Under the pieces are notes generated by a model. The model did not search any database, was not told where the DNA came from, and saw nothing but the letters and a program-made list of their open reading frames with translations. 64,000 nt of DNA. Origin: a phage. The stretch lies in sequence record PZ452612.1, one strand, 5' to 3'. Shown piece by piece: positions 18,145 through 59,466 of this stretch (positions are counted from its first letter, which is position 1; each line of letters opens with the position of its first letter). Position numbers and translations under genes: made by a program.

Positions 18145-18615
18145 TTAATCATGTTTCCACACCCCATTGGTATTCGACCAAAGTCGCTGATTATCTGATC
18201 CTCGCCACAGTTTTTTGGTCGGAAGATTTTTCTCATACTTCCCATCAATAATAACATCAACATATTTAAGCATTTCTAGTTGTTTAATATCTTCAAACTT
18301 ATATCCTGTCCACAACCAAATGCTTTTATTGGGATAAATATTTTTTACTGTTTGAACAATGCAATGAACAACATCTCTATTATCAGGATAGAGAGGGTCG
18401 CCTCCGGTTATAGTCAATCCTTCTATATAATCATTATTCAAACATTCAATTAATTGTTCTAGTGTCTCTCCAGTGAATGGAGCACCATTTCTAGCGTTCC
18501 ATGTTGATTTATTATAACACCCTTCACATTTATGCAAACAACCTGTAACGAAAAGAACGACCCTGCAACCAGGGCCATTCACAAAATCGCAAGGATAAAA
18601 TCTATCATAATTCAT
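18145..18615 (-). CDS. nrdG: Anaerobic ribonucleotide reductase activating protein NrdG (radical SAM)
   Basis: 156 aa; Cys cluster GCLHKCEGCYNK; immediately downstream of nrdD. Confidence 0.9.
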   Translation of the reverse strand: MNYDRFYPCDFVNGPGCRVVLFVTGCLHKCEGCYNKSTWNARNGAPFTGETLEQLIECLNNDYIEGLTITGGDPLYPDNRDVVHCIVQTVKNIYPNKSIWLWTGYKFEDIKQLEMLKYVDVIIDGKYEKNLPTKKLWRGSDNQRLWSNTNGVWKHD

Positions 18616-20429
18616 TGGTGTTTAACCCTATGCATGATTTCTTTATTTTTACCGAGATTAAATCCGCGTTCGTTCGGATTTCCCAAATAACCGCATGTTC
18701 TTCTTATGGTGTTCATCTTTTTAGGATCAGTTTCTCCGCAAACTGAACAAACAAATCCGTTTTCAGTAGGAGTCATTTCATGGGTACTTCCACATGTAAA
18801 ACATTTATCTACTGGCATATTAACACCAAAATAATCTAAATGTTGTGCAGCATAATCCCAGACAGCCTCAAGTCCCTTTAAATTGTTTTTCATATCTGGA
18901 AGTTCAACATAAGAAATGTGACCACCTGTCGCAATGAAATGATATGGCGCTTCACGAGAAATCTTTTCAAACGGAGTAATATTTTCTTCTACTGAAACAT
19001 GGAAACTATTAGTGTACCAGCCTTTATCTGTAACATCTTTTACACTTCCATATTTTTCTGTGTCTAGTTTACAGAAACGATAACAAAGGTTTTCAGCAGG
19101 TGTAGAATACAAGCTAAAAGCAAACCCAGTTCTTTCAGTCCATTGTTTAAGAAGAGCATTCATTTTAGTTAAAATTTCTTGTCCAATATCACGTCCGACA
19201 AGAATATTCAATTCGTGGATACCAATGTATCCTAAAGACACTGAACTTCTACCGTTTTTAAATAACTCAATTATGTCGTCATCAGGTTTAAGACGAACCC
19301 CGAATGCACCTTCTTGGTAAAGAATAGGAGCAACAGTCGCTTTAACTCCTTTTAAGGAACTAATTCTACACATCAAGGCTTCAAAACACAGATCCATACG
19401 TTCATTGAATAATTCAACAAATTTCTGTTCATTGAACTGTGTTCCAATATAAGAATCTAATGCGATACGAGGAAGATTCAGTGTTACAACACCGAGATTA
19501 TTACGTCCATCAAGAATTTCATTACCAGTCGAATCTTTCCATACGCTCAAGAAACTACGGCAACCCATTGGAGAAACTGGAACTGAAGAACCAGTAATAG
19601 CTTTATTATTCTTAGCTGAAATAATATCAGGATACATTCTTTTGCTTGCGCACTCTAGAGCAAGCTGCTTAATATCATAGTTCGGATCGTCTTTATAAAG
19701 ATTAACACCTTCTTCAACGAACATAACAAGCTTAGGGAAAATAGGAGTTATTCCATCACGACCAAGACCTTTAATGCGGTTTTTAAGAATTGCCTTCTGA
19801 ATCATTCGTTCAGTCCAATCGGCCCCCGTACCAAATGTAATTGTTACAAAAGGCGTTTGTCCGTTTGAACTAAAGAGAGTATTTACTTCATATTCATAAG
19901 CTTGGAACGCGTCATAGACATCTTTTTCTGTTTTGGATTGAGCATAATTCAACGCATCAGCGATTTGCCATTTTTCCGCATCTTCAACATGTTTAGCGTA
20001 TGTGCGTTTAACATAAGGAGAAAGAACTTTATCGACATTTGCAAATGTAGTTCCGCCATACTGATGTGAAGCAACTTGTGCAGTAATTTGTGCCATAATT
20101 GCAGTAGCAACACCAATCGATTTAGGCGTTTCAATTTGAGCATTGCCTAATTTAAATCCGTTCTCAAGCATCCCCTTTAAATCGACTAAACAACAATTAG
20201 TAAACGGAAGAGCAGGAGAATAATCAATATCATGCATGTGGATAATTCCACTTTCATGCGCATTCATAATAAAAGACGGGACCATATTTTTGGCAATGTG
20301 CTTAGACACAATACCAGCCATAAGGTCCCGTTGAGTTGGAAAAACACGAGAATCTTTATTAGCATTCTCGTTTAAAAGGTCTTTATTAGTTTTATGAATT
20401 AATCCTTCAATTTCTTTTTCAATTTTCAT
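18612..20429 (-). CDS. nrdD: Anaerobic ribonucleoside-triphosphate reductase NrdD
   Basis: 605-aa uninterrupted ORF; C-terminal Zn-ribbon cysteines (CFTCGS...CSVCG) and glycyl-radical motif RRTCGYLG. Confidence 0.95.
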   Translation of the reverse strand: MKIEKEIEGLIHKTNKDLLNENANKDSRVFPTQRDLMAGIVSKHIAKNMVPSFIMNAHESGIIHMHDIDYSPALPFTNCCLVDLKGMLENGFKLGNAQIETPKSIGVATAIMAQITAQVASHQYGGTTFANVDKVLSPYVKRTYAKHVEDAEKWQIADALNYAQSKTEKDVYDAFQAYEYEVNTLFSSNGQTPFVTITFGTGADWTERMIQKAILKNRIKGLGRDGITPIFPKLVMFVEEGVNLYKDDPNYDIKQLALECASKRMYPDIISAKNNKAITGSSVPVSPMGCRSFLSVWKDSTGNEILDGRNNLGVVTLNLPRIALDSYIGTQFNEQKFVELFNERMDLCFEALMCRISSLKGVKATVAPILYQEGAFGVRLKPDDDIIELFKNGRSSVSLGYIGIHELNILVGRDIGQEILTKMNALLKQWTERTGFAFSLYSTPAENLCYRFCKLDTEKYGSVKDVTDKGWYTNSFHVSVEENITPFEKISREAPYHFIATGGHISYVELPDMKNNLKGLEAVWDYAAQHLDYFGVNMPVDKCFTCGSTHEMTPTENGFVCSVCGETDPKKMNTIRRTCGYLGNPNERGFNLGKNKEIMHRVKHQ

Positions 20430-35403: not shown

Positions 35404-35648
35404 TAGTATTTTTCCTCTGGTTGAAATACCGCACGACAAGCCCACATACTAGCTTCCTTTAGGCGTTCTTTAGCACAGTTCAATTGGGACAAAGCTGTCA
35501 AAGCTTCAGGAGTATTCGCAGACAACGCTTCTTCCGCCAAGGCATCGAAAATAAGCCCTAATCGAACTTCTGCATCTTTAATAGCGTTCACTTTACCGAT
35601 TTTATCATCGGTATGCGGCTTGTAGCCTTTGATGTCTTCAATCGACAT
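35403..35648 (-). CDS. Hypothetical protein
   Basis: Track ORF 35403..35816 trimmed to internal ATG ([12 protein letters not shown]...) just past the upstream stop. Confidence 0.45.
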
Positions 35649-35862
35649 AAGGAATTTCCTCATCGGTGGCAAGGTCATATTCGACCAATTGGATAGGCTC
35701 ATTAATACCATATCCACGTACAGTGATATCGGTTGTCGGATATTTTCCAGTAATATCACCCATTCTAAATGCTTCAGTGAATGATTGCTCGCCTGAGCAA
35801 CTAAACCAGGCGGCAAAACATTTTAAAACATCTTCAGACCCTTCTATAATCAATTTAGCCAT
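35638..35862 (-). CDS. Hypothetical small acidic protein
   Basis: 74-aa ORF. Confidence 0.45.
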   Translation of the reverse strand: MAKLIIEGSEDVLKCFAAWFSCSGEQSFTEAFRMGDITGKYPTTDITVRGYGINEPIQLVEYDLATDEEIPYVD

Positions 35863-36224
35863 TATAGACTCTCAGTAAAGGTACGAGCGATAACGTCGCG
35901 CTGCTGTTCCGGGGTCAGAGAGTTAAAGCGAACTGCATAACCGGATACACGGATGGTCAGCTGTGGATATTTTTCCGGATGCTTAACTGCATCTTCCAGA
36001 GTTTCGCGACGCAGAACGTTAACGTTCAGATGTTGACCACCTTCAATTTTAACTTTAGGTTGATGTTCAATTTCAATTTCACGGGCATTCAAACCGTAGA
36101 AAATTTCCGGGTCTACAATAGCGTCTTCTTTAAAAGTCTTAGAGACGATAATCCGGGCTTGAGTACCGTCTTCAAAATAAATAGTGCCTTTATGTGCACC
36201 TTCAAGAATTTGATATGCTTTCAT
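35862..36224 (-). CDS. Autonomous glycyl radical cofactor GrcA/YfiD-like protein
   Basis: 120 aa; C-terminal ~64 aa ([61 protein letters not shown]) carries the RVSGY glycyl-radical motif and matches E. coli GrcA as recalled; this part is visibly GC-rich. Confidence 0.8.
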
Positions 36225-36230
36225 ATAACC

Positions 36231-36539
36231 TCAATTAGAAAATAAATTTATCCAAGTTTTTTCTTTAATCAAAAATGGGTCAGAACTAAACGCCATTAAA
36301 CTTTGAGTGATTAATCCCTTAAATGGCCCATCAATAAATTCCATTTTGAAATGCGGAATACTAGTCATCAACCGTGCGTTAGGAGCAGTACAAAGAACCT
36401 GCTGCCCTGCGAACGGACCTTTAGTCAAACGGTATCGTTTAGGTTTAAAATGGTAAATCTCGTAATTTTCTACAAGAGCCCTTTTATTGCATACTGGGCT
36501 GTTATAACAATATTCAAAAACTTCAATAGTGGTCATCAT
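36231..36539 (-). CDS. Hypothetical protein
   Basis: 102-aa ORF. Confidence 0.45.
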   Translation of the reverse strand: MMTTIEVFEYCYNSPVCNKRALVENYEIYHFKPKRYRLTKGPFAGQQVLCTAPNARLMTSIPHFKMEFIDGPFKGLITQSLMAFSSDPFLIKEKTWINLFSN

Positions 36540-57227: not shown

Positions 57228-57886
57228 TGACTGTACTTAATACAAAGGCGGGAGTTATTTCCCGTCATGCTGATTTTTTGAATTACAGAAAAAATCCAGA
57301 TCAAATTGATGTTTTAAACAACCAAGCTGTAGGTTCCGTGACTATTTCTCAGTTAGCTCGCGGTTTTTATGATGCTAACGTAGAATCTGCAATAAATGAT
57401 GTCCATAATATGGCACGAGCTGATATTGGTACTGTTGTCACAAACACTTCAGGCGTATCGCCTGAAGGTACAGCACAAGTTGATTATTGGACTTTTTCTG
57501 GTGATGTTCTCGACGATACTTTGGCCCCTGGAACGCCGGTCGTTATTAACGTATTTGGACTTGCTGTTAAAGCAACAATCGGTATGACTGATAACGAATT
57601 AACGGCACAAGTTCGTATAGCTTTACAAGAAGCCATTGCTAATCAAATCGCTATTTCTTCTTATAAAGACCATCCGTCCGAAGGTAATAAACTTCAGGTG
57701 ACATATTTAGATAACCAACGTCATGTGTTGCCAACATATGCTTCGTTTGGTGTAACAATTTCGCAAGAAATTTTGTCTGAAGCAAAATCCGGATACGGAA
57801 CATGGAATTTACTGGGTGCCCAAACGGTTACTCTTGATAACCATAATACTCCTACCGTTTTCTACCACTTTGTGAGAGCCTCATGA
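57227..57886 (+). CDS. 11: Baseplate wedge / short-tail-fiber-associated protein gp11
   Basis: 219 aa from ATG at 57227, matching T4 gp11 length; the track start 57209 is a TTG extension. Confidence 0.9.
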
Positions 57887-59466
57887 GTAATAACAATACA
57901 TACCAACACGTTTCAAACGAATCCATTTACGTTGAATTCGACCCTACGGGGTCGAATTTTCCAGATACAGTCACTAATGTCCAAGCCGCATTAGCTGCTA
58001 TTTCTCCTTCAGGTGTTAATGGTGTACCGGAAGCAACAACTACTACACCAGGAATTATTCAAATAGCTACTCCACAAGAAGTTATTGATGGACTAGATAA
58101 TAGTAAAGCTGTTACTCCGGCATCACTGAATGCTCGTCTACAATATCCTAATGCAACCGAAACTCAATATGGCTTAACTCGTTATGCTACTGAAGATGAA
58201 GCAGTAACAGGAACTATTGACGATGCATCAATTACTCCGCTTAAATTGAATCAAAAAATAGACAATGTATTCCAGACAAAAGTGTCAACAGAAGCATCAA
58301 ATGGTGTAATTAAAATTTCGACTTCTGCTGCGGCATTAGCCGGTTCTGACGATACGACGGCAATGACTCCGTTAAAAACGCAACAATTGGCAATTAAACT
58401 TATTTCGCAAATTGCTCCAAATAATAGTGACGCCACTGAATCTATTACCGGTGTTGTTCGTTTGGCTACAGTTGCTCAAGCGCAACAAGGCACCCTGCGT
58501 GAAGGCTATGCAATTTCACCTTATACCTTTATGAATTCAGTAGCATCAGAAACTAATAAAGGTGTCGTTAAACTAGGGACACAGACTGAAGTAAATAGTA
58601 ACAACTCTTCAGTTGTAGTGACCGGCGCAACATTAAACGGGCGTGGGGCTACAACTTCTTTACGTGGAGTTGTTCGTTTAACTACACAAGCTGGTAGCCA
58701 ATCAGGTGGTGATGGTTCTTCTGCCCTTGCTTGGAATGCTGATGTTATCCACCAACGAGGCGGACAAACTATTAATGGCACGCTTCGCATTAATAATACG
58801 TTGACTGTTGGTTCTGGTGGCGCTAATATAACGGGTAATGTCAATATGACCGGTGGTTATATTCAAGGCAATCGTATTGTGACTCAAAATGAATTAGACC
58901 GAATTCTCCCAGTTGGCGCTATTACAATGTGGGCTGCAGATAGTTTACCGAGTTCTGACTGGCGCTTCTGTCACGGTGGGACCGTTTCTGCTTCAGAATG
59001 TCCGGTATATGCTTCCAGAATTGGGACACGATATGGCGGTAGTTCTTCTAACCCAGGCTTGCCTGATATGCGTGGATTATTTGTTCGCGGCTCAGGTCGT
59101 GGCTCTCACTTAACAAATCCAAATGTTAATGGTAATGACCAGTTTGGTAAGCCTAGATTAGGTGTAGGTTGTACCGGTGGATATGTCGGTGAAGTGCAAA
59201 AACAACAGATGTCATATCATAAGCATGCTGGCGGTTTTGGTGAACATGATGATTCTGGAGCATTCGGTAATACCCGTAGATCAAATTTTGTTGGTACACG
59301 TAAAGGACTTGACTGGGATAACCGTTCATACTTCACCAATGACGGATATGAAATTGACCCGGCATCACAACGAAATTCCAAATATACATTAAATCGTCCT
59401 GAATTAATTGGAAATGAAACACGTCCATGGAACATTTCTTTAAACTATATCATTAAGGTAAAATAA
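57883..59466 (+). CDS. 12: Short tail fiber gp12
   Basis: 527 aa, same length as T4 gp12; Ala/Thr/Gly-rich repeats. Confidence 0.9.

Follow-up and report, generated by a model that had tools for sequence, protein, structure and literature searches.

The window analysed here, a 64,000-nucleotide stretch of phage DNA (sequence record PZ452612.1), belongs by match to a T4-like Mosigvirus. Nucleotides 35862–36224 of its minus strand hold an open reading frame of 120 amino acids (ATG at 36224–36222, TAA at 35864–35862), which is the Mosigvirus ortholog of T4 vs.6/Y06I, an autonomous glycyl-radical cofactor of the GrcA/YfiD type. This grcA gene has a counterpart of 100% identity in Escherichia coli O157 typing phage 3 (KP869101, Mosigvirus) and is 92–93% identical in nucleotide sequence to the T2/T4-type copies. 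Its product shares 112 of 120 amino acids (93%, eight differences) with T4 vs.6, which occupies the same locus between vs.7 and vs.5, and the order vs.7 homolog, grcA, vs.5 homolog within the tk-to-regB region agrees with that of both KP869101 and T4. A GAGG motif on the minus strand (36229–36232), located 4 nt upstream of the ATG, was read from the sequence as the Shine-Dalgarno element of grcA and presumably acts as its ribosome-binding site; the TGA stop codon of the upstream vs.7 homolog overlaps this motif (36229–36233). At the other end of the gene, the ATG of the downstream vs.5 homolog (35638–35862, minus strand) overlaps the grcA stop codon (TAATG, 35860–35864). In KP869101, each of four different open reading frames of the vs/regB region bears the label 'endoribonuclease RegB', which looks like annotation carry-over.

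Pfam Gly_radical (PF01228) matches residues 60–101 of the window protein with 67 bits against a cut-off of 22 (E = 2e-18). The match includes the RVSGY motif of the translation (residues 92–96; 35937–35951, minus strand) and, within this motif, the radical-bearing Gly95 (35940–35942, minus strand). The best NCBIfam model is that of GrcA (TIGR04365, IPR011140), which aligns to residues 18–120 with 159.1 bits, a score that stays under the equivalog cut-off of 170 because the N-terminus of the window protein is divergent. Compared with E. coli GrcA (YfiD), the window protein is 7 residues shorter. Its residues 61–120 are identical to residues 68–127 of the E. coli protein at 60 of 60 positions, RVSGY included, while identity within the N-terminal 60 amino acids amounts to 33% over 40 residues (13/40, E = 9e-6 in a single BLASTP comparison). 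The identity of the C-terminal residues and the Pfam match bear out the assignment as GrcA-like made in an earlier note on this DNA, which had been derived from the letters alone. Gene identity and biochemical role are already known, and the annotation as such is ordinary.

The gene is a mosaic, whose segments all lie on the minus strand: (i) the 5′ half (codons 1–60; 36045–36224) is AT-rich and of phage type, with a GC content of 0.356; (ii) a patch of 171 nt, which we take to be host-derived (codons 61–117, gene nt 181–351; 35874–36044), encodes the glycyl-radical domain at a GC content of 0.497; and (iii) the last three codons GAG AGT CTA together with TAA (35862–35873) show phage-type synonymous states and form the 3′ edge of the patch. 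In a codon alignment with grcA of E. coli K-12, the patch contains 3 differences in 171 nt (98.2% identity), all of them synonymous. Each of the last three codons, on the other hand, is unlike K-12 grcA at its third position, and the states G, T and A at patch positions 174, 177 and 180 are common to the non-converted T4-like homologs L014 and L019 and not to E. coli. These phage-type last codons (GAGAG) may also be the ribosome-binding site of the vs.5 homolog, although T4 has GAA there.

Within the 5′ half, the first 180 nt gave no BLASTN match to E. coli, and this half clusters with those of other T4-like phages. The N-terminal half of the protein on its own is a weak match to the TIGR04365 model (13.8 bits, E = 0.054), and the phage forms L021–L026 bridge, as judged by eye, the window-type and the GrcA-type N-termini. 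The 5′ half thus appears to be old phage-type sequence that encodes a remote homolog of the GrcA N-terminus.

We compared the base composition of the gene with that of its surroundings. The whole window has a GC content of 0.375; only 0.11% of the 171-nt windows across the 64 kb reach the value of the patch, and the contrast between the two gene halves falls within the top 0.3% of positions. The gene is therefore compositionally chimeric, as the earlier note had proposed, and its GC profile departs from that of the rest of the window. The same note had ascribed host-like, GC-rich codons to the 3′ half. The raised GC content is there, but GC3 is only 0.42, so that the host-like signal lies mainly in the choice of codons (CTG, CGT/CGC, ACC, CCG) and not in extreme GC. 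By BLASTN, every one of the 5,426 complete E. coli genomes matched grcA, at best with 96.7% over 183 nt, and megablast of the whole 64 kb against the same genomes returned the grcA patch as the sole matching segment. GC content peaks elsewhere in the window, reaching 0.52 at 58618–59100 within a plus-strand open reading frame of 539 amino acids (57847–59466). This peak at about 58.6–59.1 kb had no megablast match to the 5,426 E. coli genomes and is therefore not a recent host patch.

The boundaries of the patch were determined from those sites at which E. coli and the non-converted phage homolog L014 differ. E. coli-type states are found in the window gene at 21 of 53 such sites in the 5′ half, at all 27 in the patch and at none of the 3 in the last three codons, and the best breakpoint falls at gene nt 177–180 (Fisher p = 6.5e-9). 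The 5′ edge coincides with the point where the similarity between host and phage collapses, immediately upstream of an invariant stretch of 10 residues. The 3′ edge is placed a few codons before the stop, and homology ceases past the stop, where the downstream gene begins. The order of old phage sequence, host block and old phage sequence is, as far as base patterns can tell, the signature of homologous gene conversion. Recent capture of host sequence had been suggested in the earlier note. Its origin from the host, E. coli, is upheld; since the 5′ half is devoid of a nucleotide match and the last codons are of phage type, however, the segment represents an internal conversion patch instead of a captured gene end.

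Comparison with more than 80 host species places the donor of the window patch in E. coli, from which it differs at 3 positions, as against at least 16 for non-Escherichia genera; coliphage patches are 1–3 positions away from E. coli and 13 or more away from non-Escherichia genera. The three differences of the window patch are private synonymous changes (T15/A81/C132). Among the 5,426 E. coli genomes, no allele with these phage-specific states was found and none closer to the window patch than the K-12-type allele that gives the best match of 96.7% over 183 nt. The last conversion of the window patch appears recent on the scale of phage-genus divergence and is not brand new; the recency claimed in the earlier note holds on that scale, and is qualified by the three private changes and by the distance to the nearest allele. 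Two further sources were considered and rejected: (i) pflB or tdcE as donor, as their amino acid sequence differs and the DNA of the E. coli pflB 3′ end is about 80% identical; and (ii) a donor other than E. coli for the divergent coliphage patches of FP43, mar005 and PD112, to which E. coli is still nearest. The extra differences of FP43, mar005 and PD112 are private and mostly GC-to-AT, and these patches are therefore older ones and do not point to other donors. In FP43 and mar005, every private change runs from GC to AT, which fits a decay toward phage composition after transfer from host to phage.

The patch is not specific to this phage. The 3′ region of E. coli grcA (nt 200–384) recurs at 95–99% identity in 633 T-even phage records, and the comparison with the T4-family Y06I genes that the earlier note had proposed reveals the patch in T4 itself (97.8%). 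In nearly all records listed, the alignments of the E. coli-type patch start at nt 200. Non-converted homologs, found in other T4-like genera (L009–L020) and in T5-like phages (L045–L071), encode near-identical C-terminal amino acids; the DNA of their radical domains is 65–85% identical to that of any of more than 80 enterobacterial and Pasteurellaceae host species. The 98.2% identity of the window patch to host grcA thus exceeds the level of divergent homologs. L014 is identical to E. coli GrcA at 60 of 60 amino acids and yet differs from it by 30 synonymous changes, from which it follows that protein constraint alone cannot explain a DNA identity of 98%. Among more than 70 other IMG/VR phage homologs from T4-like genera, T5-like phages and jumbo phages, none exceeded about 85% identity to the 80 hosts, with the exception of one contig. 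This contig (L031, IMGVR_UViG_2706794630_000006, 19 kb) contains at 1291–1797 a complete grcA of host type, in which a bacterial N-terminus is joined to a patch that is 91% identical to Yersinia; the contig probably represents bacterial DNA and not a phage gene. No match of at least 90% to a Salmonella-type or Enterobacter-type patch was found in 50,697 phage records, and conversion is therefore not universal among T4-like phages. As far as sampled, the phenomenon is limited to the Tequatrovirus/Mosigvirus and Jiaodavirus lineages. Tequatroviruses from Yersinia (PYps32T), Salmonella (Manna) and Citrobacter (CrRp10) carry the E. coli-type patch, which hints that these phages either infect Escherichia as a rule or switch hosts faster than their patches are converted.

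Jiaodavirus, a sister genus of Klebsiella/Raoultella phages, has the same gene architecture, in which phage-type 5′ halves are combined with a Klebsiella-type patch. Klebsiella grcA DNA was taken for this comparison via the protein cluster that bears the name K. variicola / K. pneumoniae. In 108 records of Klebsiella/Raoultella phages, the patch is 95–99% identical to that of Klebsiella grcA, compared to an identity of 84–87% between the Klebsiella-type and the E. coli/coliphage-type patch. Jiaodavirus patches depart from Klebsiella alleles at 2–5 positions, compared to 19 for E. coli; the Klebsiella phages adopt Klebsiella-specific synonymous states at about 19 sites, and the Klebsiella amino acid signature ETLLDAVEH (ETLEDAVKH in E. 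coli) moves with the patch. The correspondence extends to single alleles. The patch of KPV15 agrees with one K. pneumoniae allele at all but 2 of 162 nt, against 19 differences for E. coli, Raoultella phage M21a is nearest another K. pneumoniae allele and shares its 102T/114G/126C, and JD18 has a Ser codon in common with a K. variicola allele.

The site-by-site inspection covered some 15 phage sequences and some 10 host alleles. Between Mosigvirus and Tequatrovirus, whose flanking DNA is about 74% identical, dS amounts to 0.35–0.52 in the 5′ half and to 0–0.15 in the patch. For T4 and L004, 11.5 synonymous differences in the 5′ half compare with 0 in the patch (p = 4e-5). L004 and L006, which belong to different genera, differ at 19 of 180 nt in the 5′ half and at 0 of 171 nt in the patch (p = 2.6e-6); for the window phage and FP43, both Mosigvirus, the corresponding counts are 0 of 180 and 9 of 171 (p = 0.0014). 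Judged by these counts, the genealogy of the patch is decoupled from that of the rest of the gene. The L006 patch equals a common E. coli allele with zero differences over about 172 nt, and the 5′ half of the same phage is up to 10 nt off those of other Tequatroviruses. L008 carries T39 and A102 in its patch, as does E. coli RM10809, and the patch of Escherichia phage OES_C-2 differs from the E. coli allele SK1144 at 1 position in 183 nt. The states of the last codons vary by phage: in OES_C-2 host-type states continue almost to the stop, and in T4 position 174 is of host type, as if conversion tracts had ended at different points. Repeated sampling of E. coli alleles is traced by few single sites (positions 12, 39 and 102), at which parallel mutation could have led to the same states. 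Among the hosts themselves, divergence of the patch follows taxonomy, with 0 differences for E. coli, 3 for Escherichia sp., 14 for Citrobacter and 30 for Salmonella.

We infer from these patterns that the patch most likely stems from recurrent homologous recombination from host to phage. In such a process, the amino acid sequence of the radical domain, which tolerates hardly any change, would have kept an ancient phage homolog at about 75–85% nucleotide identity to host grcA over this domain. In the infected cell, a piece of host chromosome would recombine homologously with the phage gene and swap its nt 181–351 for E. coli sequence, the 5′ edge of the conversion being set where the homology between host and phage collapses and the 3′ edge a few codons before the stop. 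Once converted, the patch would be 98–100% identical to the host over about 170 bp and therefore a good substrate in later infections, which would render the process self-reinforcing. The patch would thus decay from GC to AT and be copied anew time and again, with the Escherichia or Klebsiella allele that the phage happens to encounter as the source. In T-even phages, host DNA is degraded and cytosine is replaced by hydroxymethyl-cytosine, so that recombination from host to phage is expected to be rare; this counts against the proposed origin. We see about an even chance that the patch is in ongoing concerted evolution with host grcA, in which the allele of whatever host genus, or even strain, is currently infected replaces it repeatedly. 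Strictly virulent T-even phages with modified cytosine would then have to exchange DNA with the host chromosome fairly often in nature. If this is the case, the patch constitutes a built-in molecular record of the recent hosts of the phage, and the spare part supplied by the phage stays exactly matched to host pyruvate formate-lyase (PFL) and PFL-activase.

The main rival to recurrent copying is one capture per host genus (Escherichia, Klebsiella), followed only by spread from phage to phage among the T-evens. T-even phages recombine intensely and the flanks of the gene are mosaic; spread among phages would also account for the decoupled genealogies. It agrees as well with the one 5′ edge that the E. 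coli-type copies of the 633 records share in nearly all records listed, although a shared edge is expected anyway because the homology between host and phage ends there. What makes this scenario unlikely, if still the strongest of the alternatives, is that phage polymorphisms match host alleles in both position and state (L008 and RM10809; M21a, KPV15 and JD18, each of which is nearest a different allele), that the agreement with Klebsiella alleles includes a three-site match and a Ser/Pro codon, and that L006 combines a patch identical to an extant E. coli allele with a 5′ half set apart from other Tequatroviruses. A single ancient capture, kept by purifying selection and a low substitution rate with no later exchange, is far less probable still. 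The 60 C-terminal residues do indeed vary little or not at all among hosts, phages and PflB, and L014-like homologs keep all 60 residues of E. coli GrcA. However, the synonymous differences of L014 arose under the same protein constraint, dS drops several-fold from the adjacent 5′ half to the patch, and the Klebsiella phages carry the synonymous states of Klebsiella at the sites described above.

A phage-to-host or two-way transfer, by which host grcA alleles would have been patched from phage copies, has a precedent in the bidirectional exchange proposed for cyanophage psbA (PMC1484495), and a single shared site, A102 for example, does not reveal the direction of change. This direction is hardly compatible with the stepwise divergence of the host patch along host taxonomy, with the host-like composition and codon choice of the patch or with the decay of private phage changes toward AT; in addition, infection by a T-even phage kills the cell. 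We hold it to be very improbable. Nothing specific speaks for an artefact due to contamination with host DNA or chimeric assembly, and its probability is negligible, given that 633 phage genomes, sequenced independently and with the T4 reference among them, show the same junctions, that the patch is in frame and that phage-type codons resume before the stop.

For recurrent recombination from host to phage, the closest precedent of the mosaic is found in the psbA and psbD genes of cyanophages. Intragenic recombination between host and phage copies of these genes was reportedly described by Zeidner in 2005. Patchy G+C content and segments that cluster with the host have been documented for this intragenic recombination (Sullivan 2006, PMC1484495). 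As in the cyanophages, grcA is a phage copy of a conserved host metabolic gene for which an exchange of gene segments is proposed, and the mosaic features of psbA, namely supported breakpoints, a host-clustering segment and patchy base composition, are all present in grcA. The two systems differ in several respects: the phages concerned here are enterobacterial T-even phages with modified cytosine that degrade host DNA; grcA contains a single patch of about 170 nt with fixed edges; the patch is 98–100% identical to living host alleles; the direction can be polarised from host to phage; and sister phage genera carry patches specific to host genus and host allele. A literature search for grcA, phage and gene conversion together, or for a host-tracking patch in vs.6/grcA, returned no paper, which is not proof that the case is unpublished. 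The vs.6/Y06I papers, in their passages on this gene, discuss domain and function only (PMC8683613, PMC1524935).

The case is of interest beyond this gene. It offers a clean, polarisable example of a host chromosome segment that would have entered strictly lytic T-even phages, T4 included, apparently more than once. T-even phages break down host DNA and are generally regarded as rare recipients of host sequence. With its known donor alleles, the block of about 170 bp may serve as a natural assay of homologous recombination from host to phage and as an enterobacterial counterpart to the debated psbA exchanges of cyanophages. It may also mark the genus, and sometimes the allele, of the recent host of a phage.

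The functional context is that of anaerobic and micro-oxic metabolism. T4 Y06I and E. coli YfiD/GrcA are activated by PFL-activase and restore pyruvate formate-lyase that has been cleaved by O2 (Wagner et al. 2001, as presented in PMC8683613), and vs.6 is conserved across T4-like genomes (PMC1524935). By analogy to T4 Y06I, the window protein would play the same role: host PFL-activase would install the radical on phage GrcA, and phage GrcA would dock onto host PFL that oxygen has cut at its own radical glycine and thereby restore its activity. Production of acetyl-CoA and formate would continue in micro-oxic infected cells. The patch encodes exactly the part that would fit the PFL core and the activase of the host, and a host-identical sequence would be at least harmless and is possibly favoured.

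The window also codes for an anaerobic ribonucleotide reductase, located about 15 kb from grcA. Both genes lie on the minus strand: nrdD (18612–20429; Pfam NRDD, E = 1e-170, and Gly_radical) encodes the reductase and nrdG (18145–18615; Pfam Fer4_12 and Radical_SAM) its activase. Megablast against the 5,426 E. coli genomes detected no E. coli-like patch in the nrdD/nrdG region. Formate, the product of PFL, is the reductant of class III ribonucleotide reductase (PMC4390871), and a link between GrcA and NrdD is therefore biochemically sensible. The earlier note had combined grcA with nrdD/nrdG to an 'anaerobic toolkit'; both nrd genes are present, and the functional connection from GrcA via PFL and formate to NrdD is a reasonable inference. 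It yields a testable chain, in which phage GrcA keeps PFL working, PFL supplies formate and formate feeds the anaerobic ribonucleotide reductase of the phage.

Several of the records compared show peculiarities of their own. The vs.6 gene of the T4 reference (NC_000866) carries a private nonsynonymous change inside the patch, R73H (CGT to CAT), which neither E. coli nor any other phage examined shares. In OES_C-2, vs.6 is 357 nt long (29–385 of locus L177) due to a deletion of two codons in the EIEIE repeat of the 5′ half. The grcA of KPV15 (NC_055715, listed as both L166 and L029; 225–586) comprises 362 nt with a deletion of 1 nt compared to JD18 and is annotated as two short coding sequences; it represents either a pseudogene or a sequencing error. 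A genome labelled in GTDB as the Firmicute 'Vagococcus sp. WN89Y' contains an Enterobacteriaceae grcA whose protein falls into the Klebsiella cluster, which is probably the result of contamination or mislabelling. Finally, the 275-kb 'Klebsiella sp. WOUb02 plasmid unnamed4' carries grcA, a gene that is normally chromosomal.
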